The translations under genes and the position numbers were made by a program. This document shows positions 28,621 to 54,373 of a stretch of DNA of 64,000 nucleotides, piece after piece. Position 1 is the first letter of the stretch. Each line of letters opens with the position of its first letter. The stretch is taken from assembly GCA_020351775.1 (NCBI GenBank), contig CP070666.1:3418658-3482657 (forward strand), read 5' to 3'. The notes under the pieces are model-generated. The model had not been told where the DNA came from, did not search any database, and saw only the letters and a list, made by a program, of their open reading frames with translations. The DNA comes from Gemmatimonadota bacterium (GTDB taxonomy: Bacteria; Gemmatimonadota; Gemmatimonadetes; Gemmatimonadales; GWC2-71-9).

Positions 28621-28984
28621 CAGCCCACGGAGCCCTGCTGGCACCCTTTGTGTCACACCGGATGTGAAGGGATCCTCGCAGAGACGAACTTTGTGTTCCA
28701 AAGTACTTTATAACCAGGAGGCACGGCACGACCTCTCGACTTGACGGCGGCAGGGTGGTGGAGATGGGGAGTACTGGCACAACCTCGTCACCCACCGTGA
28801 GCGAGGAGTACTCCGGTGGATCGCGATCTGTGGCTTTGCGGGCGGTGTCCTCGTCACCCTGCTCGTGCTGGGCTTCGCCCTTTCGACCATCTTGCGGGAG
28901 TGAGCCGGCAGCAGCCGTCGCGCGTAGGGAAGGCAGCGACAGCGCACACAACGAGCGGATACCGATTATTTTTGGATCCCACCT

Positions 28985-29066
28985 GCGACCGTGGCGGAAT
29001 TGGCAGACGCGCAGGATTTAGGATCCTGTGGGGAAACCCGTGGGGGTTCGAGTCCCCCCGGTCGCA
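28985..29066 (+). tRNA. tRNA-Leu, anticodon TAG, long variable arm
   Basis: Acceptor stem gcgaccg/cggtcgc. Anticodon stem cagga/tcctg with loop ttTAGga. Variable arm tggggaaacccgt. T-arm ggggg-ttcgagt-ccccc. No encoded CCA. Confidence 0.9.
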
Positions 29067-29243
29067 TAGCACCCCACGATTCGTCCCACTTGAGCGGACC
29101 TCGGGCCTGGGCCCAGCGTGCCTCCTCAGACCGGTGGTTCCCTGGTGGACTCTTCATCCCATATGTTTCTAACAGGATCCGGCCACGGCGCGGTAATCGC
29201 GCGCCTCCGTTAGATTTATCAGCTATTTCGCAAGTAGGTATTC

Positions 29244-38866: not shown

Positions 38867-40513
38867 ATGCTCTCGAAGGGATCGGACTTGAGGACCTTCA
38901 AGCTGCGCAGCACAACCGGCAATCAAGCAATCGACCTGACCCCAGGAGCGGTTGTGGTCGTCGGTCGCGCGGTGACCAGCGACCTCCCCATCTACGATCC
39001 GACGGTCTCACGCCACCACGCCGAGCTTGCGCTCACCGACGCCGGTGTACATGTGACTGATCTCGGCTCCAGTAACGGAACGTTTGTCAACGGGACGCCG
39101 ATCGACAAGGCGACCGCGGTCAACGGGGATGTGGTCACTTTCGGGCGGGTCGCGTTCAAGGTGGTCGAAGTGACGCCGCCGGCTCAGATGCCCGCCCCAG
39201 ACCTGGCGGCGGTTGCGCCCCCGCCCCCGGAAGCCACCATCGTTCGCCAAGTGGCGGTTCCTGAAGCCGGCGAGATCGAAGCCAAGGTCGTCGCTCGCGC
39301 TGGTAGCGGCTCTCAACTCAAACTCGAGGGCACGTCTGAGGAGGAGCGCCAAGCCAAGAAGCTCACACTCCTATTGGACATCTCACAGGCGCTGTCACGT
39401 CATCAGGACGTCGACAAGCTGCTCAAGAAGGTGGTCGACATCACGTTTCAGGTGATGGAAGTGGATCGGGTGTCGATCTTGATGGTGGAGGGCCAGGCCG
39501 AGGAACTCATCCCGCGGATTTCCAGAAGCCGGTTGGGCGGGGAGGGTGGCAGCCGACACGTGCCGCAGTCAATTGCCCGCCGTGCCGTCTCGGAGCGGCT
39601 GGCCATACTGACTGATAACGCGGCCGCCGATGACCGCTTCCGTGGCAAGTCGATACTGGTTCAGAGCGTGCGCAGCGCCATGTGCGCGCCCCTGTTGGGA
39701 AGTCGCGATAGCGGCGGCGAAGGCAGGGTGCTGGGCTTGATCTACGTTGACAGCCAGACGGCAACGGAGGCCTTCAGCGACGAAGACCTCGAATTCCTGA
39801 TTGCGTTCTCGGGTATTGCCGCAATCGCAATCGAGAACAGTCGGCTATTGGACCGGATCCAGCGTGAGGCCGTGGTGCTCTCCAATTTTCAGCGGTACTT
39901 CGCTCCCAACATCGCGCAGCAGATCGCGGGTCAAGAGGGGGCGGTTCAACTGGGAGGTACCAAGCGGCCGGTCGTGGTCTTCTTCAGCGACATTCGGGGA
40001 TTCACGCCCATGTCTGAGACGATGGGACCGGATGACATCGCGACTCTGCTGAACGAGTACTTCACCGAGATGGTGGAGATCGTGTTTGAGCATGGCGGCA
40101 CGCTCGACAAGTTCATGGGTGATGCGATCATGGCTTTATGGGGCGCGCCCATTTCACACGACGATGATGCGGACCGGGCCATGGCCGCGGCCATCGATAT
40201 GCAGAGTGTGTTGGCAAAGCTGAACGTGAAGTGGGCGGCGGAAGGTCGTCAGCGTGTGGAGATCGGGATCGGGATCGACTACTACGAGGTGTTCGCGGGC
40301 AACATCGGCAGCGATCGCCGTTTGGAGTACACCGTGATAGGAGATGCAGTGAACACTGCGTCTCGCCTCTGTTCGCAGGCGGGTCCCGGTGAGATCATTC
40401 TATCGCGCCGGTTCTATGAGGAGCTGACCAAGCGACCCGCTGTCGAAGAATTGGAAGCACTGGAACTCAAGGGCAAGGCAGAAAAGGTCCCAGTCTATCG
40501 AGTGAAGCGATAG
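38867..40513 (+). CDS. FHA - GAF - class III adenylate/guanylate cyclase
   Basis: FHA domain (VVVGRA...SRHHAEL...DLGSSNGTFVNG). GAF region. Cyclase catalytic domain (VVVFFSDIRGFTPMSE...DKFMGDAIMALWGAP...GDAVNTASRL). Confidence 0.88.
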   Translation: MLSKGSDLRTFKLRSTTGNQAIDLTPGAVVVVGRAVTSDLPIYDPTVSRHHAELALTDAGVHVTDLGSSNGTFVNGTPIDKATAVNGDVVTFGRVAFKVVEVTPPAQMPAPDLAAVAPPPPEATIVRQVAVPEAGEIEAKVVARAGSGSQLKLEGTSEEERQAKKLTLLLDISQALSRHQDVDKLLKKVVDITFQVMEVDRVSILMVEGQAEELIPRISRSRLGGEGGSRHVPQSIARRAVSERLAILTDNAAADDRFRGKSILVQSVRSAMCAPLLGSRDSGGEGRVLGLIYVDSQTATEAFSDEDLEFLIAFSGIAAIAIENSRLLDRIQREAVVLSNFQRYFAPNIAQQIAGQEGAVQLGGTKRPVVVFFSDIRGFTPMSETMGPDDIATLLNEYFTEMVEIVFEHGGTLDKFMGDAIMALWGAPISHDDDADRAMAAAIDMQSVLAKLNVKWAAEGRQRVEIGIGIDYYEVFAGNIGSDRRLEYTVIGDAVNTASRLCSQAGPGEIILSRRFYEELTKRPAVEELEALELKGKAEKVPVYRVKR

Positions 40514-41067
40514 GGCAGCCCTGCCGCATCCAGCAGAGATATCACCAGACGAATCGGCAATCCCATCACCCCGAAGAAGTCACCCTCAATGCGGCGCACC
40601 AACACCGCGCCGCGACCCTGGACAGCGTAGCTACCCGCCTTATCGAGCGGCTCGCCCGTCGCAACGTACTCCTTGATGAACTCCTCATCAAACGATCTGA
40701 ACCACACTTTGGTCACATCGCACAGTTCCCGCGTCTCGCCACCCCGTGCCAGCGCCACTGCGGTAACGACTCGGTGCTGCCGCCCAGACAACATCCCCAG
40801 CATCCGGGCAGCTTCAACGTCCGAGCTGGGTTTTCCCAAGATGATGCCGTCGATCACCACCAGGGTGTCCGCCGCCAGAACGGGCACACCTGAGTGACGC
40901 TGCGCTACTTTGACCGCCTTTGCCCGCGCCAGCCGCACTGCGAGCGCCTCGGGTAGCTCTCCCAGCTCGGGGCGTTCATCTATCTCGGCCGGATCGACTT
41001 CATACTCGATGCCCAGCATATCCAACAGCTGCTGGCGTCGAGGTGACGCGGAGGCGAGGACTATCAT
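40495..41067 (-). CDS. maf: Maf-like nucleoside triphosphate pyrophosphatase
   Basis: MIVLASASPRRQQLL...AADTLV...AGSYAVQG. Its 3' end overlaps the convergent cyclase gene by 19 nt. Confidence 0.9.
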   Translation of the reverse strand: MIVLASASPRRQQLLDMLGIEYEVDPAEIDERPELGELPEALAVRLARAKAVKVAQRHSGVPVLAADTLVVIDGIILGKPSSDVEAARMLGMLSGRQHRVVTAVALARGGETRELCDVTKVWFRSFDEEFIKEYVATGEPLDKAGSYAVQGRGAVLVRRIEGDFFGVMGLPIRLVISLLDAAGLPYRFTR

Positions 41068-41501
41068 CTGTCCAGAATCAACGTGACCGGACCATCATTG
41101 ACCGCATCAACCTGCATCACCGCTCCGAACTCGCCCGTTGCCACCGGAACGTCGCGCCTCTTGAGCGCGGTCACGAATCGTTCGTAGTTGACGGCAGCCT
41201 CCTCCGGTGGCGCTGCCCCGACGAACGAGGGCCTCCGCCCCTTGCGTGCATCGCCATACAGGGTGAACTGGGAGACCACGAGCACTGCACCATCAACGTC
41301 GCGCAAGTCCAGATTCATGCGGCCTTCCTCGTCCGAGAACACCCTAAGCCCCACGACCTTGTCAGCCATCCAGCTAATCACAGCATCATCGTCACCCGGT
41401 TCAAATCCGACGAACAGGAGGAAACCTCGCTGAATGGAACCCACAATCCGCCCGCTCACGGCTACCGAGGCCCGCGAGACGCGTTGCACCACTACCCTCA
41501 T
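41064..41501 (-). CDS. dtd: D-aminoacyl-tRNA deacylase
   Basis: MRVVVQRV...LLFVGFE...SQFTLYGD..KGRRPSF...NDGPVT. Confidence 0.93.
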   Translation of the reverse strand: MRVVVQRVSRASVAVSGRIVGSIQRGFLLFVGFEPGDDDAVISWMADKVVGLRVFSDEEGRMNLDLRDVDGAVLVVSQFTLYGDARKGRRPSFVGAAPPEEAAVNYERFVTALKRRDVPVATGEFGAVMQVDAVNDGPVTLILDR

Positions 41502-41535
41502 CTGCCTGACTCCCTCAGCTTACCCTCACGCGTCG

Positions 41536-42020
41536 TCATTCCACCGTCACGCATTTGGCAAGGTTGCGCGGCCGGTCCATGTCACAGCCACGTCGCACTG
41601 CTACGTTGTAGGCAAACAGTTGCAGTGGCAGCACGCTCAGCACGGAGGTCAGGGGATGCATTGCGTCCGGTATCTTGAACACATGGTCAGTCAAACGGGC
41701 CATCTGGTCATCACCCTCCGTCACCACGGCGAGGACCCGTCCGCCTCGTGCCTCAACTTGCTCGAGATTGGATAAGATCTTGGAATGGACCCCGTCCTGG
41801 CGCGCTACGAAGACGACAGGCATCATTTCGTCGACCTAGGCAAGGGGACCATGCTTCATCTCCGCAGCCGGATACCCTTCGGCATGGATGTGGTAGATCT
41901 CTTTCAGCTTGAGTGGGCAAGACCTGCCGAGTCGTAGCCCCGGTGCTTGAGACGCTGCAAGCCTTCGAGTACCACCGACACGGCTTCACGATATCCTACG
42001 TATCCGACCACGCCACACAA
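41536..42020 (-). pseudogene. glmS: glutamine-fructose-6-phosphate aminotransferase remnant (internal ~1.3 kb missing, frameshift, in-frame TAG)
   Basis: The TTG-Cys start ([34 protein letters not shown]) lies 9 nt after a GGAGA immediately downstream of the glmM stop. Near 41913 the homology jumps to another frame: [39 protein letters not shown]...RPRNLAKCVTVE (GlmS C-terminus). Confidence 0.8.
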
Positions 42021-42034
42021 GATGGCATGTCTCC

Positions 42035-43384
42035 TCAGCTACTCATATACTCCTTCGCGGCACTCACCAACGTGTCTGCAGCTTCGCTGGTCGGTGCCTC
42101 GGCGATCAACCGCACTATCGGCTCGGTTCCGGACGGTCGAACGTGGAGCCAGGAATCGCCCCAAGCAAGGCGGAGTCCATCTTGCCGATCGACTGTGGCA
42201 TCCGAGAATCGCTGCTGCAGCGACTGATAGATCCCCTCCATGGATCCCTGTCGCCCTACCTTCGCCTTCACTATCGCGTATCGTGGTGCTGCCCGCACCA
42301 ACTCGGCCACTGAACGTCCGGTCCGCGCCATCAGGCTCAGCACCAACCCGGCCGCAACCGGCGCATCGCGTCCCAGATGCAAGTCGGGTAGCATCACTCC
42401 CCCATTCCCTTCACCACCGATCACAGCACCGACTTGTTGCATCAATGCTGCGACGTTGGCCTCCCCTACCGGTGCACGCCGAACCACCGCACCGTAATCC
42501 CGCGCAGCGTCTTCGACCACCAGCGACGTGGATAGGTTGGTTACGACCACACCGGTACGTCGCGCTAGGACCTCGCGGACTGCAAACGCCAGCGTGTAAT
42601 CCTCGCCGATCGGTGTCCCGGTCTCATCCACGACAGCGAGCCGGTCTACATCTGGATCGACGGCGATCCCCACATCTGCCTCTGCGCGCCTCACCAACTC
42701 TCCAAGTCCCGACAGGTTCTCAGGCACCGGTTCAGGCAGCCGCGGAAACATGCCGTCAGGTTCCAAATCCATCCCCATCGTGCGACAAGCCAGCCGGTCG
42801 AGTAGCTGGGGCATGATATTCCCGCCGGCACCCCGCACGCAATCCAATGCCACGGTGAAGCGCCGTCGCCGGATTGCCGTAACGTCGATCAGATCCAACC
42901 CCATGACCGCGTCAAGATGACGTTCGACGGCAGCCTCGTCCTCCACCGCATCGCCAGGAAAGGCCGCAGTTTCAGGGGCAGGATTAGCCGCTAACTCGAA
43001 CAGCCGGCCGGCCGTCTTTCGGCTCAAGAAGAGACCATCCGGACCCACGAACTTCAAGGCATTCCACTCTACTGGATTGTGGCTTGCCGTGATCACGATC
43101 CCACCCGCCGCACCATGATGCTCGACTGCGAGTTGTGCGGTCGGGGTTGGTATCAGACCGCAGTCGATGACCGAGACACCGACCGACTGCAAGGCCGATC
43201 CCACGACGTCCGCGAACATCGGGCCTGATGCCCGGGCATCCCGGGCCAGAACAGCCGTCCGGCCACCCGATTCACGGATCAAGGCTCCGAACGCCGTGGC
43301 ATACCGCTCCGCGACTTCAGGCGTGAGGCTCGTGCCCACAATCCCCCGCACACCCGACACACTGACAATTAGGGCATCACTCAT
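42035..43384 (-). CDS. glmM: phosphoglucosamine mutase
   Basis: VSVSGVRG, active-site [14 protein letters not shown], and DPDVDR metal loop. The frame is open from 43399. Confidence 0.93.
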
Positions 43385-48159: not shown

Positions 48160-48979
48160 GGTAGAAACCATCGTCCGCGACCTTGCTCCGCAGCTGGAAG
48201 GCCGCAAGTTCCACAACCCCCGCCTCCTCAAGTCGGATGTACTTCGCAAGGTCAGCCGGGAGCGACTGCTGGATTCTCTCCGGGGTAGACGCATCCTATC
48301 AGTGCGGCGGCGTGCCAAGCACGTCGTGTTCCTGCTGGACGGCGGTCTCCGCTTGGTTATCCAGCCCCGCATGACCGGCGTTTTCACCATCTGCCGTCAG
48401 AGACTGACCCAGCAGGAGCGCCGGTATGCAGTACTGCTCGTGAGCATAGGAGACGGCGCTACCTTCGTGTATCGTGATGTTCGTCGGCTCGGCACGATCT
48501 GGCTGTTGAACGAGCGACAGTGGCAGACCTATACTGCTGGCATCGGCCCAGAGCCTCTGGATGACGGTTTTGATCTGGATCAGTTCGTCGCACAGATCGG
48601 CGGCAGCCGTCAGGCTATCAAGAAAGTACTGATGGATCAGAGGCGCCTGGCCGGTGTTGGGAACATCTATGCCAATGAAGCGCTGTTTCGAGCCCGAGTA
48701 GATCCTTCTCGAGCCACGCAGCGCTTGAGCCGCTCTGAGGCGGGCCGCATCCACCGGGAGGTACGCGCAGTCTTAAGCGCGGCGATTGCCGCCAGCGGCA
48801 CGACCGTGCGCGACTACAGGACGGGGACCGGCCAGAGTGGCTCGTTCCAGTTCCAGCTCCGGGCCTACGGCCGTGGTGGTGAGCCCTGTCCGCGGTGCAG
48901 AACCAGGCTGGTCACCACGCACGCCATCGACGGCCGGGCAACGACTTTCTGTTGGCGCTGCCAACGCGGGCGCCAATAG
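48143..48979 (+). CDS. mutM: formamidopyrimidine-DNA glycosylase
   Basis: The GTG start gives (M)PELPEVE with the catalytic N-terminal Pro. H2TH region and C-terminal zinc finger CPRCRT...FCWRCQ. Overlaps the purD end by 17 nt. Confidence 0.92.
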   Translation: MPELPEVETIVRDLAPQLEGRKFHNPRLLKSDVLRKVSRERLLDSLRGRRILSVRRRAKHVVFLLDGGLRLVIQPRMTGVFTICRQRLTQQERRYAVLLVSIGDGATFVYRDVRRLGTIWLLNERQWQTYTAGIGPEPLDDGFDLDQFVAQIGGSRQAIKKVLMDQRRLAGVGNIYANEALFRARVDPSRATQRLSRSEAGRIHREVRAVLSAAIAASGTTVRDYRTGTGQSGSFQFQLRAYGRGGEPCPRCRTRLVTTHAIDGRATTFCWRCQRGRQ

Positions 48980-49013
48980 TCTTCATTCGTCCCTAGCTGA
49001 GGAGTTGCAGTTT

Positions 49014-50111
49014 TTGTCGACACTGGCCCTTCGCCTCACGGATCTCGGCCGCCTACGGCGCAAGGTCCACGCGCTGGCGGAGAACCGTCCGGCCGTTTAC
49101 CGCATGCTCAACCCGACCGGCAGGTCCGTATACGTAGGGAAAGCCAAGCAGCTGCGCAACCGACTGCTATCTTACTTCCGGGCCCGGTACCCGGAGGACA
49201 AGGCCGCGCGAATTCTCAACGCGACGGCCGACATCGAGTGGGATTACGTCCCCTCCGAATTCGCCGCATTGCTGCAGGAACTGACACAGATCCGGCGATA
49301 TCGGCCCATCTTCAACGTCCGCATGAACCGGAACCGGCGTGTCGGATTCATCAAGATCTCGGCCGGAGGCGCGCCCAAGATTTATGTCGGTAGCACACCC
49401 GGAACCCCGGGCACCCGACACTATGGCCCTTTCACCAGCATCGGACGGCTCAAGCAGGGGATCCGCACGCTGAACGACCTACTCGGCCTGCGGGATTGCT
49501 CGATGGCAATGCCGATGGTGTTCAAGGAACAGGGAGACCTGTTTGGCTGTGCCAGTCGCGCAGCATGCATGCGTCACGATCTGGGGAGCTGTACTGCTCC
49601 ATGCGGTGGGTTCGTCAGCGAAAGAGATTACCAGGCACGCTTGCGGACTGCCGTGTCGTTTCTCGAGGCCAGCGACATCACACCGCTAAATCTGGTGGTG
49701 GAGCAAATGACCGCGGCGAGCGAGTGCAGCGAGTTTGAACACGCTGCACGGTGGCGCAGCAAGTTCGACCGGCTCGAGTGGCTCCTGTCGGCTGCGGTGA
49801 GGGCACGCGCCGCAGTGACTGCACTCAGTTTCGTCTACACCGATCCCGGCGTAAGGGGTGATGATCGGGCCTACATAATCCGTGACGCTTCCGTGCGCGC
49901 CGCAGCGCCCGCGCCACGATCACCGATCGAACGGGAGGCCTTTCAAGCGCTGGTGGCTCAACACGCCGGTCCCGAACTGCAGGGTCCCGCGCTTCCCGCG
50001 GACTCGATCGACGAAATGCTCCTGTTGCTCACGTGGTTCCGCCGTCATCCGACCGCACTCAACCGTACGGTACCGCTGGCCCAGTGGCTCGAGCACGACC
50101 AAGCAGGCTAG
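49014..50111 (+). CDS. Cho-like excinuclease (UvrC N-terminal-half homologue: GIY-YIG plus UVR domain)
   Basis: TTG start 9 nt after GAGGAG. GIY-YIG core AVYRMLN...VYVGKAKQLRNRLLSYF...E. Cys cluster and UVR-like helix pair. No RNase H/HhH C-terminal half. Confidence 0.7.
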   Translation: MSTLALRLTDLGRLRRKVHALAENRPAVYRMLNPTGRSVYVGKAKQLRNRLLSYFRARYPEDKAARILNATADIEWDYVPSEFAALLQELTQIRRYRPIFNVRMNRNRRVGFIKISAGGAPKIYVGSTPGTPGTRHYGPFTSIGRLKQGIRTLNDLLGLRDCSMAMPMVFKEQGDLFGCASRAACMRHDLGSCTAPCGGFVSERDYQARLRTAVSFLEASDITPLNLVVEQMTAASECSEFEHAARWRSKFDRLEWLLSAAVRARAAVTALSFVYTDPGVRGDDRAYIIRDASVRAAAPAPRSPIEREAFQALVAQHAGPELQGPALPADSIDEMLLLLTWFRRHPTALNRTVPLAQWLEHDQAG

Positions 50112-50194: not shown

Positions 50195-51169
50195 GTGTTG
50201 CTAGCAATCGCGCAGTTGCTGCTTGGCCTGGCCCTGCTGCTCGGCGGGGGACACTATCTGGTGCGGGGTGCAACGAGAATTGCCCTGCTTGCTCGAGTGT
50301 CAACTGCTATAGTCGGTCTGACTGTGGTTGCTATGGGTACGAGCCTCCCGGAGCTGGCGGTCAGCGTGGGAGCGGCTGCGCGGGGCAGTACGGACCTGGC
50401 CTACGGAAACATCATCGGGTCAACCATCTTCAACGTCGGCATGATACTCGGCGTTGCGGCTCTGGTAGCTCCCATGGTTGTCCAGCGTCAAACGCTCCGC
50501 CTTGAGTACCCTTTCATGTTCGTAGTTGCCTGTATGGTGCTTCTCCTGTGCCGCGATTCGATGATTGACCGGCTGGAAGGTGCATTTCTTGTTGCTGCCC
50601 TCGCCTTGTTCACAGTCTACGTTGTTCACTTGGCCCAGCGAGAAATCGATGCGGATGAGGCTGTGGCGTTGGAACGCGAGGTCCAAAAGGCCGCCCACAT
50701 CAAGAATGGCATCGGCCGCGCTTGGGGCATCAACGCGCTCCTGGCCACACTGGGCATCGCGGCCTTGATCGGGGGGGCGGATCAGGTGGTTGCTGGTGCG
50801 GTGAAGATCGCGGTCTTCTGGGGTGTCGATGAGCGGATGATCGGGCTCACAGTCGTCGCGATGGGTACGAGTCTTCCGGAACTGGCTACCAGCGCAGTGG
50901 CCGCCAAGGAGGGGGAGCACGAAATCGCGTTGGCCAACGTGATCGGCTCCAATCTCTTCAATCTGCTGGGAGTATTGGGTGCCACGGCGGCCATCTTCCC
51001 CGTCCCAATCAACGAGGCAGCCAAGAATATCGACAACTGGGTGATGCTGGGATTCTGCGCGGCGATGTTCCCTCTGATGTGGTTCGGACGTCGGGTAGGT
51101 CGCTGGGAAGGCCTGGTATTGCTCGCCGGGTTCGCCGTGTACCTGGGATATCTGTTGCTAACCCGCTGA
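50195..51169 (+). CDS. Ca2+/Na+ antiporter (CaCA/YrbG family)
   Basis: Two alpha-repeat signatures (GTSLPELAVSV... and GTSLPELATSA...GSNLFN) in a 10-TM protein. Confidence 0.85.
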   Translation: MLLAIAQLLLGLALLLGGGHYLVRGATRIALLARVSTAIVGLTVVAMGTSLPELAVSVGAAARGSTDLAYGNIIGSTIFNVGMILGVAALVAPMVVQRQTLRLEYPFMFVVACMVLLLCRDSMIDRLEGAFLVAALALFTVYVVHLAQREIDADEAVALEREVQKAAHIKNGIGRAWGINALLATLGIAALIGGADQVVAGAVKIAVFWGVDERMIGLTVVAMGTSLPELATSAVAAKEGEHEIALANVIGSNLFNLLGVLGATAAIFPVPINEAAKNIDNWVMLGFCAAMFPLMWFGRRVGRWEGLVLLAGFAVYLGYLLLTR

Positions 51170-51595
51170 CTCGAGTGAGACGAGGCGGGCCCGGGGAGGA
51201 AGCCCCGGCTCCAGTTCCAGAATGCCAACCGTGGGTAACTCATCGCCTTGCACCGACCCGGCGAAGCCAGGATTCGTGACCGCTACGATCTCGTCAACCA
51301 ATTCGAGCAGCGGTCGATCTGTATGTCCGTACACTATGATCTCCGCATCGGGATAGACTGCGTGCAGCCGCGTCAGGGTGGGCAAGCCAAGTTGATCGAC
51401 GGCCAATCGCCCTCCGGTGGCTCCTCGAAGCCCGGCTTCGTCGGTGATACCCATCTCGGTGCTGAGCAGCCGCCACCCATGGCTGCTTACTATGAGCCGG
51501 ACGGGTATGTCATGCTCGACCAGGACCTGCAGCAGACGCACTGCGTAAGGCGCACCAGATGCACCAGTAACCGCGGGAACCCAGAGTGCCGTCAC
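51158..51595 (-). pseudogene. chimeric ORF: UbiX-type flavin prenyltransferase N-terminus joined in frame to a YfcE/MJ0936-type metallophosphoesterase C-terminus
   Basis: GTG start after AGGAGAGG. ALWVPAVTGASGAPYAVRLLQVLVEHDIPVRLIVSS is the UbiX N-terminus (~60 aa). After ~51380-51420 the sequence reads LHAVYPDAEIIVYGHTDRPLLELVDEIVAVTNPGF...VGILELE (phosphoesterase C-terminus with degenerate GHTH and NPGS motifs). Confidence 0.65.
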
Positions 51596-51806
51596 TGACC
51601 TCTCCTGTTGGGAGTGGGTGATTTGATGGGATGCCGCGGTGGACCGGGCGGCGGTGGACCCTTCTGGCGGTCGGGCGCGGGGCGGGGGACCGGTCGCTTC
51701 ACCCGAGGTGCCGGGCGGTCCTGGCGTCTCACTTTCCGGGGGCCGCCACCTGCCGACCCGGCTCCGCATCGATCCGTGCAGTCCCACGCCCGCCTCGCCG
51801 CTTCCC

Positions 51807-52938
51807 TCACCACGTTCGATCTCCCAGTGCCGCGAGAAACAAGACGACGGATATGATCCCGTTCATCGTGAAGAACGCTGCATCGAGCCTGCTCAGATCG
51901 TGGGGGCGTACGAGGCTGTGCTCCCAAGCCAGCAGGACCGCAGCAACCGCTACGCCGGCATAATACGCCGTGCCATGGCTCGCCCCTACACCAAACACCA
52001 CGAGGCCCAGCAGCGTCACCGCATGCAGCACTTTTCCGATTAGAATACTACGCGACGGACCCAGCAGCGCGACTGCACTGTGCAAGCCATGTTCCCGATC
52101 AAACCGCTCGTCCTGGAGTGCATAGAAGATATCGAACCCACCAACCCAGGTCAGGACGGCAGTGACGGCTTTGGTCATGGTGACCGGCTTGCGCCGCAGA
52201 AATCCAGCGAACACGTATTCGTCGATGCTGGGTGGCAGCCGGGCGGAGGCCGAATACATCGACGCAGGATCTCCGCCTAGCACCATGACAACAGGCATTC
52301 TATCACCGCGCGCTGCCATGGCACGCCAGTGAGCGGCACCGACTTTGTGCCTTTGCCAATGCATCGCCAGCAACTTTCGCGTGCACCTGAACACGGTACG
52401 TGCCCACGTTGCGGACCCCCGACTGCGGATCGCGAGTCACCACCTGAGGCAGAGTCAAATAGGGACCGCCGTCTCCTGGCCAACACGTATTGATGGGCAG
52501 GCTCATCAGATCGATGTCAGCTCCCTGTTTGATCACCCCCTGACATGGTGCGCCGCGCGACACCGAACGCGGCGGGTACTTCGCGATCTCAGCGATTCTG
52601 GGCAGCAGTTCCAGCTTCTCGCGCTGGCCCTCCGGGACCCTCAACTTGATCAGAGCTTCAATTCGTGCACCGACATCGTCGAGTCGCTCCACGCCAAGTG
52701 CAAGAGACATTCGGTTGACGGACCCGAAGGCATTGATCACCACCGGGATGTCACTCGTGACTCCGCTGTCCAGAACGGGGCGCTCGCACAGTAGCGGCGG
52801 TCCGCCGCCGGCGATCTTCACGCACCGGTCGGCTATCTCGGTGATTTCGTGCACCACCGACACCGGGTGGCTGATTCGAAGCAGCCGGTCCCGGCGGGCT
52901 ACTTCGGTAATGAAACCATGAAGATTATCTATGGTCAC
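51807..52938 (-). pseudogene. UbiD-family decarboxylase N-terminal half (1-nt frameshift) fused to the C-terminal third of a UbiA-family prenyltransferase
   Basis: GTG start after GGAGAGG. UbiD motifs GPPLLCE, NAFGS, PINTCWPGDGGPYLTLPQVVTRDP and NVGTYRVQV. The frame switches near 52378 to KLLAMHWQRHKVGAAHW...MPVVMVLGGDP...DEYVFAGFLR. After ~52160 it reads LTWVGGFDIFYALQDERFDREHGLHS plus terminal TM helices (UbiA). Confidence 0.7.
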
Positions 52939-53671
52939 CGACCTCTCCCCAATACAGTGATGCGACACCGGACGTCAATCGTTCGACACCTACATGGGTA
53001 AAGCCACCCTCCTGCATCAACGCGGCGAACCCCTCGTTGTCCGGAAACCGCTCCACAGAATCTGGCAGGTAGCTGTAAGCCGTCATATGTTTGGACACCG
53101 TACGACCTATCACTGGAAGGATGGTGCGAAAGTAGAAGTAGAAAAGGTAGAGCGGCCGCAGCGGCCAGGTCAGGGGTATCGAGAACTCCAGCACAACGAG
53201 GCGGCCTCCGGGTTTGAGTACTCGCGCCATCTCCGTTAGACCGGCATTCACGTCCGCTAGGTTTCTTATTCCAAAAGCGACCGTACAACCATCGAAGGAT
53301 CCGTTAGCGAACGGGAGACTCAGTGCGTCAGCAGCCACTGGATAGACACTTGAGGCCTTTCGCCGACCGTGTTGCAGCATCGGCACGACGAAATCCGCAC
53401 CCACGACGCTACCGCCAAAGCCGGGACGCCTGGCCAATTCCGCTGCCAGATCGAGTGTTCCGGCACAAAGATCCAAGTACGCTCCCTGCGGCGCTGCCTC
53501 CCAACCCAACTTGCGGACGGCGCTGCGGCGCCACAGCCAGTCCATGTTGAGGCTGAGAGCGTGGTTGAGCAGGTCGTAGCGCGGTGCAATGGCTGTGAAC
53601 ATCTCCCGCACGTACGATCGCTTCCCATGGTCCGATGGGGGGCCCCTCAGGGGCGAACCAGCCCTAGGCAT
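52925..53671 (-). CDS. ubiE: demethylmenaquinone/ubiquinone C-methyltransferase
   Basis: VREMFTAIAPRYDLLNHALSL..D..WR, SAM motif LDLCAGT, FGIRN, and VLEFS. Appears full length. Confidence 0.9.
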   Translation of the reverse strand: MPRAGSPLRGPPSDHGKRSYVREMFTAIAPRYDLLNHALSLNMDWLWRRSAVRKLGWEAAPQGAYLDLCAGTLDLAAELARRPGFGGSVVGADFVVPMLQHGRRKASSVYPVAADALSLPFANGSFDGCTVAFGIRNLADVNAGLTEMARVLKPGGRLVVLEFSIPLTWPLRPLYLFYFYFRTILPVIGRTVSKHMTAYSYLPDSVERFPDNEGFAALMQEGGFTHVGVERLTSGVASLYWGEVGDHR

Positions 53672-53764: not shown

Positions 53765-54373
53765 ATGGCTCACCCCCTCGATCTCTCGACTGCCACCGAC
53801 CAAGAGGTGGTGAAGCAGGCCCGCAAGGGTCACGAGGGGGCATACCGGGAACTGATACGACGCTACCAAAGACCGGTATTCTCTCTGATCTATCGAATGG
53901 TGCGCGATCGCGAACTCTCCGAGGACCTGGCTCAAGAAACGTTCGTCAAGGTGCTTAACGCCATCGACCGCTATCGCCCGGAATTCAAGTTCTCCTCGTG
54001 GGTGTTCAAGATCGCCAACAACGCAGCCATCGATCACCTGCGCAAGAAGGAACTGGATACGCTCTCACTCGAAGGCGGACCAGACGCGGTCACAGCGGAG
54101 CGTATCGAAGCGACAGCACTGCAAATCGGCGATTCGGGTGAATCACCACTCGACGAACTAGAAGCACGCGAGCTCGGGACAGCGATCGAGCGTGCCATAG
54201 GTCAACTGAGACCGGAATATCAAACCTGTATCATTCTGCGACACGTCGAGGGGAGGCCCTACGATGAGATCGCCGACATCCTGGGACTCCCACTCGGCAC
54301 GGTCAAGACCTACATCCACCGTGCCCGGGCAGAACTGAGGGACATACTAGAACCGCTGCGTGAGACGATGTGA
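53765..54373 (+). CDS. ECF-type RNA polymerase sigma factor (sigma-70 family, regions 2 and 4)
   Basis: YRELIRRYQRPVFSLIYRMV...DLAQETF (region 2), FSSWVFKIANNAAIDHLR, and region 4 GRPYDEIADILGLPLGTVKTYIHRAR. Confidence 0.9.
   Translation: MAHPLDLSTATDQEVVKQARKGHEGAYRELIRRYQRPVFSLIYRMVRDRELSEDLAQETFVKVLNAIDRYRPEFKFSSWVFKIANNAAIDHLRKKELDTLSLEGGPDAVTAERIEATALQIGDSGESPLDELEARELGTAIERAIGQLRPEYQTCIILRHVEGRPYDEIADILGLPLGTVKTYIHRARAELRDILEPLRETM

Follow-up and report, generated by a model that had tools for sequence, protein, structure and literature searches.

Are the late steps of menaquinone synthesis still encoded by the genes that follow menG in the stretch of DNA considered here, or do these genes persist only as fragments that automated annotation has listed as proteins? 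The stretch (hereafter the window) comprises 64,000 nucleotides (nt) of a 5.51-Mb Gemmatimonadota chromosome (assembly GCA_020351775.1, contig CP070666.1, positions 3,418,658 to 3,482,657), which is a metagenome-assembled genome (MAG). Beside menG (also called ubiE, encoding demethylmenaquinone methyltransferase), GenBank lists a 'UbiD family decarboxylase' of 211 amino acids (P0010), a 'UbiA family prenyltransferase' of 163 amino acids (UCG85324.1, from ATG 52298) and a 'hypothetical protein JSW71_15495' of 145 amino acids (UCG85323.1), the last of which corresponds to a chimera of UbiX and a phosphoesterase. On the basis of comparisons with related loci, we propose, with a probability of about 0.9, that these products derive from a locally confined pseudogene block with four lesions in the four genes after menG (that is, those for a UbiD-like decarboxylase, a UbiA-family prenyltransferase, a UbiX-type flavin prenyltransferase and a YfcE-like phosphodiesterase). 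An original prediction, made from the letters of the DNA and a list of its open reading frames (ORFs), had placed the damage at 51807–52938; this region is indeed damaged, but the damage continues to 51158 and two of the lesions (lesions 3 and 4) had been missed. In itself this is ordinary gene decay, larger than first reported.

The ancestral operon and its remnants in the window

The reference for this comparison was a set of 50 loci, nearly all from Gemmatimonadota, obtained by scanning the MenG protein against one genome per species; the top MenG match has only 73% identity, and the window's own species is therefore absent from the set. The nearest relatives are L001, L002 and L003, the last from a complete chromosome. 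In L001 and L003, an ECF sigma factor gene and menG are followed by genes for UbiD (509 amino acids), UbiA (299 amino acids), UbiX (195 amino acids) and a YfcE-like phosphodiesterase (162 amino acids), and then by convergent Na/Ca exchanger, GIY-YIG and mutM genes; the window has identical flanks. All four genes after menG are present in 28 of the 50 loci. The ancestral Gemmatimonadota operon would thus have had the order menG, mqnL, an mqnP-like gene, a small ORF, an mqnM-like gene and a yfcE-like phosphodiesterase gene, with mqnL, mqnP and mqnM being the names given to late futalosine-pathway genes of the SCO4490, SCO4491 and SCO4492 type (Ravcheev & Thiele 2016, PMC4746308). The intact orthologues of L003 agree with these assignments to different degrees. 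UbiD passes the 'menaquinone biosynthesis decarboxylase' equivalog TIGR03701 (620.9 bits, cut-off 495.9), UbiX passes PRK06029 (197.7 bits, cut-off 188) and the intact YfcE orthologue exceeds the cut-off of its family model (TIGR00040, 56.25 bits). UbiA passes TIGR01475 (ubiA_other, 277 versus 180.8) and reaches 257.8 bits with the MqnP model NF041584 (MqnP_SCO4491), below the cut-off of 420, with PRK12886 and PRK12888 scoring higher; as it falls below this 'exception' cut-off, its membership of MqnP proper rests on gene context.

The corresponding features of the window, with the evidence for each in brackets, are as follows:

52925–53671, minus strand: menG/ubiE (demethylmenaquinone methyltransferase), the intact first gene of the operon (Pfam Ubie_methyltran 5–231/233; GenBank UCG85326.1)
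52374–52968, minus strand: mqnL (UbiD-like decarboxylase) remnant A, codons 1 to about 198, original frame (Pfam UbiD_N 2–77/78, UbiD 3–67/206)
52367–52380, minus strand: frameshift site in mqnL (MAFFT alignment with L001, L002 and L003; identical in Logan contig L052)
52161–52373, minus strand: mqnL remnant B, codons about 199–274, shifted frame (Pfam UbiD 68–141/206)
52155–52169, minus strand: deletion junction 1, breakpoint 52161/52160, with two GCCGTC hexamers (blastn block boundaries against L001, three-way comparison of the sides)
51807–52160, minus strand: mqnP-like (UbiA-family prenyltransferase) remnant, last 116 or so codons (Pfam UbiA 144–248/250)
51592–51812, minus strand: small ORF of about 73 codons, rich in Arg, Pro and Gly, with the C terminus ...PPRHPIKSPTPNRRGQ followed by the stop (motif conserved in related loci)
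51398–51595, minus strand: mqnM-like (UbiX flavin prenyltransferase) remnant, codons 1 to about 67 (Pfam Flavoprotein 5–46/162)
51394–51397, minus strand: deletion junction 2, with a candidate microhomology of 4 nt at GATC (sequence comparison with relatives)
51158–51397, minus strand: YfcE-like metallophosphoesterase remnant, last 75 codons (Pfam Metallophos_2 105–152/154)

The first gene of the operon is intact, as predicted: MenG spans nearly the whole of its Pfam family and scores 223.8 bits with NCBIfam TIGR01934 (cut-off 158.35). The UbiD remnant is orthologous by position, lying between menG, which it follows directly, and the UbiA-like gene, in an order and with flanks that equal those of L001, L002 and L003. 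Its first ORF (52968–52303, minus strand; GenBank start GTG 52938) contains remnant A, which is 74% identical to amino acids 6–199 of the L001 UbiD (tblastn), and continues out of frame to 52303. The frame is lost at GCGAAAG/TTGCTGG (52380–52367; lesion 1), between the VQV and AMHWQ codons, where the window has 16 nt and L001, L002 and L003 have 18 nt; this amounts to a net −2-nt (equivalent to +1) frameshift at about 52374/52373, outside any homopolymer. A shift of one nucleotide near 52378, next to an AAA run, had been predicted; the frameshift is real, but its size is a net −2 and not simply one nucleotide. In the shifted frame, remnant B is 75–78% identical to amino acids 199–274 of the UbiD proteins of L001 and L003 (tblastn). 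Against the TIGR03701 cut-off, remnant A reaches 169.3 bits (positions 2–173/433) and remnant B reaches 83 bits (positions 171–248), and the three-domain architecture of UbiD is not found in one frame: the UbiD_N domain is whole, the core changes frame at profile position 67/68 and reaches no further than 141/206, and UbiD_C is missing.

An overlapping ORF in another frame (52394–51807, minus strand) runs from UbiD profile positions 68–141/206 into UbiA positions 144–248/250 with no stop between. In the DNA alignment, window positions 53800–52162 correspond to L001 9866–11500 and window positions 52160–51835 to L001 12761–13086, and about 1,260 bp, encoding UbiD amino acids 275–509 and UbiA amino acids 1–183, are missing at the boundary (lesion 2), such that ubiD codon ~274 is joined to ubiA codon ~184. 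The ORF frames and Pfam profile spans thus bear out the central claim of the original prediction, namely that a frameshifted UbiD gene passes partway along into the C-terminal third of a UbiA gene, and the deletion, which had been put at about 1.2 kb, measures about 1.26 kb against L001. The UbiA remnant is 75% identical to amino acids 176–297 of the L003 UbiA (tblastn). It keeps the second Asp-rich motif (YALQDERFD), whereas the first (NRIVDRHID in L003) is deleted, and it has neither the pair NxxxDxxxD and YxxxDxxxD nor the approximately nine transmembrane helices that define a UbiA protein; its score with the MqnP model NF041584 is 111.4 bits (cut-off 420).

The next two genes are damaged as well. 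ubiX starts normally at 51595 and its product matches amino acids 1–62 of the L001 UbiX (tblastn), and a +1-nt insertion then lies inside GGAGGGCGATTGG (51415–51403), against 11 of the 11 relatives compared (lesion 3). About 0.65 kb encoding UbiX amino acids ~68–195 and phosphoesterase amino acids 1–87 is missing further on (lesion 4), which joins ubiX to residue 88 of the phosphodiesterase. The UbiX remnant scores 28.4 bits with PRK06029 (cut-off 188) and lacks the complete flavoprotein fold of about 180 residues. The phosphoesterase remnant, which matches amino acids 88–162 of the L003 protein (tblastn), scores 18.6 bits with TIGR00040 (cut-off 56.25) and lacks the full set of metal-binding motifs, and its catalytic motif GHTH has become GHTD by the change H114D, at a site invariant in 27 relatives.

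How much function these fragments could retain may be judged against characterized relatives. A full-length UbiD orthologue aligns over its whole length with Escherichia coli UbiD (PDB 5m1c/2idb; E = 4e-122 for 5m1c), and a full-length UbiA orthologue does so with Aeropyrum pernix UbiA (ApUbiA, PDB 4od4; E = 2e-35). Compared with the former, the window's remnant ends before the conserved EGPFGDHTGYY segment, which we take to carry the catalytic glutamate, and has no C-terminal domain; compared with the latter, the UbiA remnant lacks everything through the first Asp-rich motif, with about six helices gone. Of UbiX, about 60 of 195 residues are left, and the phosphoesterase remnant is without four of the five metal-binding motifs. 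Given that essential parts are gone from all four remnants, none can work, and the sequences predict that the chimeric products cannot function.

The remnants also appear to have been released from selection. Window-specific substitutions were counted at those alignment columns where every relative has the same residue: the remnants are changed in 7 of 148 such columns (UbiD M51V, A59P, F62C, I230M and P245R; UbiA V213A; phosphodiesterase H114D) versus 3 of 504 in six intact flanking genes (Fisher's exact p = 0.0018), and MenG is changed in none of 52. For UbiD, UbiX and the phosphodiesterase, though not for UbiA, the remnants are several points less identical to L003 than their L002 counterparts are; this modest divergence implies that inactivation was fairly recent. 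The locus therefore combines the two marks by which a pseudogene is recognized, as frames are disrupted and truncated relative to intact orthologues (four lesions mapped against 3–11 relatives) and, on small counts, purifying selection is relaxed relative to the neighbouring genes.

The same ORFs might instead be taken for a functional novelty (that is, a natural UbiD–UbiA and UbiX–phosphoesterase fusion, possibly expressed through programmed frameshifting), given that both deletion junctions are in frame and leave long ORFs and that GenBank lists the products as proteins. Two in-frame junctions would arise by chance in one case out of nine, and because both deletions happen to leave open frames, the chimeric ORFs persist and are annotated as proteins. 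When 5.8 billion proteins were searched with the UbiD–UbiA chimera, the only sequence to span the junction among the best 120 of 5386 matches was a Logan copy from the same organism (P0131), the remainder being ordinary UbiA proteins of about 299 amino acids that cover about 56–75% of the query; a conserved fusion with the same boundary, an alternative that the original prediction had itself raised, was thus not encountered in that search, and the 30-mer across junction 1 is absent from JGI metagenome contigs. With essential parts gone, NCBIfam scores far under the cut-offs and invariant residues mutated, we regard a functional fusion as scarcely credible.

Independent sequence and the deletion junctions

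A different concern is that the organism has intact genes and that mis-assembly or consensus errors introduced the deletions and indels. The MAG is a single 5.5-Mb contig and so was probably built from long reads, and scattered frameshifts typical of such data occur in other long-read MAG loci (L031, L041, L046 and L048). In the MFD long-read MAGs L031, L041, L046, L047 and L048, ubiD, ubiA and ubiX are split into several frames by scattered small indels, and large deletions are absent; such a pattern resembles the consensus error of long reads and differs from the lesions of the window. The 163-amino-acid chimera falls in the same 90% cluster as a 152-amino-acid product of the Logan assembly of run SRR14739665. 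The Logan contig concerned (L052, 990 bp) is 99.2% identical to window positions 52474–51491 and has the same frameshift, junction 1 and spacer, and a second (L051) is 100% identical over 1,338 bp of the sigma factor gene and menG. Intact genes in raw data would have marked the predicted damage as an artefact; the independent assembly shows the identical frameshift and junction 1 instead.

L052 and the MAG differ at three places within 60 bp of the UbiA remnant and nowhere in the other ~2.2 kb compared. These differences (L052 354–411, corresponding to window 52121–52069) are a 6-bp TATTAT insertion that adds two Tyr codons, one synonymous single-nucleotide polymorphism (SNP) and one GTG/GCG SNP, at which L052 retains the ancestral Val and the MAG encodes Ala, relatives being invariant at this site. 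As L052 carries lesions 1 and 2 together with differences of its own, at least two haplotypes share these two lesions. An assembly artefact is very unlikely for lesions 1 and 2, given that the k-mer assembly of SRR14739665 matches them base for base in a slightly different haplotype. For the locus as a whole, an artefact also accords poorly with a −2 indel outside any homopolymer, with deletions of 1.26 and 0.65 kb that lack flanking repeats (an unusual assembly error) and with the excess of substitutions at invariant sites in the remnants, which assembly error would not be expected to produce; even with lesions 3 and 4 independently unconfirmed, we consider this explanation highly improbable.

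Some observations nevertheless weigh against reading the locus as a pseudogene block. Lesions 3 and 4 have no independent read support, as L052 ends at 51491 and a look-up of adjoining contigs found none, and SRR14739665 may or may not be the sample behind the MAG. The remnants show a modest excess of divergence, that of UbiA being no more diverged than its counterpart in L002, and few sites underlie the constraint test. The sequence read directly amounts to 64 kb of the 5.51-Mb chromosome, and among the best 120 database matches no second MqnL (at least ~56% identity) or MqnP (at least ~65%) came from the same contig. Searching for exact copies of three products (the window MenG, P0010 and a guessed partial product 3′ of L052) retrieved no contigs.

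Taking the lesions as real, the junctions offer some indication of how they may have arisen. Junction 1 reads AAA GCC GTC ACT / GCC GTC CTG. The 6-bp direct repeat noted in the original prediction is present as described (GCCGTC at 52169–52164 and 52160–52155, GACGGC on the plus strand, with ACT between the copies), but its interpretation as the footprint of a microhomology-mediated deletion does not fit the comparison with relatives. Such a deletion leaves a single repeat copy. Here the left hexamer encodes the Ala-Val of UbiD K-A-V-T and the right one the Ala-Val of UbiA A-V-L-T-W, the same residues are found in relatives, and the relatives' sequences flanking breakpoint 1 share 0–1 nt. Since both hexamers are kept and each is native to its gene, they do not fit a collapsed microhomology, and the pair is a by-product of two coding sequences; a 6-bp pair of this kind is expected in ~3% of random 30-nt windows of this sequence. 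At junction 2, UbiX-derived TGGCCGTCGATC meets phosphoesterase-derived GATCAACTTGGC, with a single GATC present. The L002 ubiX has TCGATC and the phosphoesterase genes of L003 and L004 have GGAGATCAG and GGGGATCAG (the phosphodiesterase side begins GATCA), which makes junction 2 a plausible candidate for a 4-nt GATC microhomology event, judging from the relatives' sequences. An insertion sequence element or long repeat was looked for near the deletions and none was found. We suggest that both deletions would have occurred by illegitimate recombination, over the 4-nt GATC at junction 2 and in an essentially blunt manner at junction 1.

Menaquinone synthesis and the fate of the cluster

The original prediction held that the late quinone steps cannot be encoded here, and at this locus the lesions in the mqnL, mqnP and mqnM remnants support that statement. 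Futalosine-type prenylation and decarboxylation would have become dispensable before the genes decayed. MenA performs prenylation with decarboxylation, and MenG is common to the classical Men and futalosine pathways. As menG is still constrained, demethylmenaquinone most likely reaches MenG by another route (the classical Men pathway, for instance, or an mqnL/P/M set that has diverged or moved elsewhere in the chromosome), with the cluster having become redundant and the shared MenG having been kept; we would give this explanation slightly better than even odds. It is consistent with an intact menG that has no change at its 52 invariant sites, with the retention of menG in relatives that lack mqnL/P/M at the locus and with a large genome (5.51 Mb) that shows no general decay in the rest of the window. 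Both alternatives have precedents among relatives: Gemmatimonadales favour the futalosine pathway and the order SG8-23 the classical one, menA being present in 82% of SG8-23 genomes versus 8% of Gemmatimonadales (PMC9426454), and in some Gemmatimonadales (L022 and L037) the UbiD beside menG is a divergent one, with 37% identity. Against it stand the absence of any men gene or second copy within the window, the lack of a close same-contig MqnL or MqnP among the best 120 database matches, and the reliance of the closest relatives L001, L002 and L003 on the intact cluster. Likewise, no men genes were seen near menG in the loci of four syntenic relatives, judged from those ORFs that have no equivalent in either the window or L003.

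We rate complete loss of menaquinone synthesis as less probable than another route. On this account, the lineage would use the quinones or precursors of its neighbours, or have no quinone respiration, with menG not yet decayed or engaged in other methylation. Four lesions over three consecutive pathway genes with no replacement visible in 64 kb would fit such a loss, as would the missing same-contig paralogue among those 120 matches, and quinone auxotrophy is documented in other bacteria (PMC5738691). Yet menG shows no relaxation of constraint, unlike the remnants, and a genome of 5.5 Mb in which the neighbouring genes are intact gives no impression of reduction. All cultured Gemmatimonadota contain the menaquinones MK-8 or MK-9, and the quinone-dependent complexes I and II are encoded in most genomes of the phylum (PMC9426454). 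We therefore think complete loss unlikely, and continue to favour a supply of demethylmenaquinone from elsewhere in the genome.

The related loci provide some context for this change. In a rough neighbour-joining tree of MenG and the sigma factor, the window is sister to L001 and L003, which are both intact. A clade of five loci (L008, L012, L015, L017 and L024) has menG followed by the small ORF and the phosphodiesterase gene, without mqnL/P/M, and L019 has the same arrangement independently. No mqnL/P/M genes were found in the fetched DNA of these six loci (10 kb on each side for L008, L012, L015 and L019; shortened by contig ends for L017 and L024), nor did the interval between menG and the phosphodiesterase gene in L008, L012, L015, L019 and L024 (L017 was left out) yield a tblastn match to mqnL/P/M remnants better than E = 0.07. 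With the five-locus clade, L019 and the window all lacking functional mqnL/P/M, these genes have left this locus at least three times, and wreckage is visible only in the window. Other arrangements also occur: L016 lacks ubiX only, L039 and L043 have the order menG–ubiA–ubiX, and L022 is rearranged. The divergent UbiD proteins of L022 and L037 were likewise noted beside menG.

A broader conjecture, which we put forward as more doubtful still than complete loss, is that the window is a snapshot of a recurrent process, in which marine-sediment-type Gemmatimonadota have shed mqnL/P/M from this operon on at least three occasions and have retained menG, the small ORF and, frequently, the phosphoesterase, and that, in the absence of a replacement, the outcome would be auxotrophy or an unrecognised enzyme set that feeds MenG. 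Were this true and no replacement held in whole genomes, a free-living bacterium of 5.5 Mb would be an auxotroph for menaquinone or a precursor, or unrecognised enzymes would deliver demethylmenaquinone.

Neighbouring features, significance and comparison with known systems

Between the UbiA and UbiX remnants lies the small ORF listed above, which the original prediction had not noted. It overlaps the UbiA stop with its GTG start and the UbiX start with its own stop, and it appears intact though both neighbours are dead. The same C-terminal motif occurs immediately 5′ of ubiX, or of the yfcE-like gene in loci without ubiX, in 16 related loci (L005, L008, L010, L012–L015, L017–L019, L022, L024, L026, L033, L034 and L049), where the ORF has about 50–75 codons, a variable body rich in Arg, Pro, Lys and Gly, a conserved C terminus of the form (R/K)HPx(K/R)(S/T)PTPNRRG(Q/R) and a stop that overlaps the next start (ATGA, GTGA or TTGA). 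The invariant residues use 2–4 different codons each, which points to selection at the level of the protein; the ORF matched none of the Pfam-like and NCBIfam families to which it was compared. The stretch of ~210 bp between the UbiA remnant and ubiX was also considered as an insertion, an idea that was rejected because the spacer is common to many relatives and encodes this conserved ORF.

The gene for the YfcE-like metallophosphoesterase lies directly 3′ of ubiX in most related loci, with its start overlapping the end of ubiX (L003 13685–14173), and is also retained in lineages without ubiX at the locus. A functional tie between this enzyme and UbiX, such as supply of the prenyl monophosphate substrate, is speculation.

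Elsewhere in the 64-kb window, ORFs are full-length and most are recognisable by family (feoB, lutABC, tig, clpP, clpX, trpE, purD, guaB and others). Eight of the ten flanking ORFs nearest the cluster match Pfam families, and the alignments of syntenic genes with L015 and L019 each consist of a single near-full-length high-scoring segment pair. The neighbouring genes being full-length, the decay is local. Rfam and tRNA scans of the window detected only a tRNA-Leu (28984–29067). For the interval 40513–42035 the six-frame list contains no long ORF that convinces, and Rfam gave nothing there; an ORF of L019 matches window positions 41513–41067 at 63% identity over 149 amino acids, indicating at least one shorter minus-strand gene there. 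A conserved protein of ~370 amino acids is encoded at window 48786–50111 (plus strand) and L003 15233–16339, with a GIY-YIG (UvrC N-terminal-like) domain as its only recognisable part; in the window, as in all relatives examined, its gene is flanked by mutM and the Na/Ca exchanger gene.

The consequences are in part practical. Because the remnants are annotated as ordinary proteins, automated reconstructions would credit this MAG with late menaquinone steps that are impossible at this locus. The evolutionary point is modest: a quinone operon caught in mid-decay, beside relatives that kept or cleanly erased it, marks a lineage in which the menaquinone route was changed or lost, and offers a dated example of operon removal by one blunt and one microhomology deletion plus small indels.

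Compared with the late futalosine pathway as described, the intact orthologues of relatives match the mqnL, mqnP and mqnM families and form one operon with menG, whereas the window keeps fragments of 274 of 509, 116 of 299 and ~67 of 195 codons, with two frameshifts. To this gene set the Gemmatimonadota operon adds the conserved small ORF and the YfcE-like phosphodiesterase, neither of which is described in PMC4746308. The pattern of multiple independent lesions in functionally linked neighbours resembles pseudogene formation by deletion and frameshift in other bacteria, and the excess of conserved-site substitutions, the clean removal of the genes in related lineages and the one putative microhomology junction resemble operon decay elsewhere. 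In host-restricted bacteria, however, decay extends across the genome, whereas here it affects a single operon and the large genome is otherwise intact.

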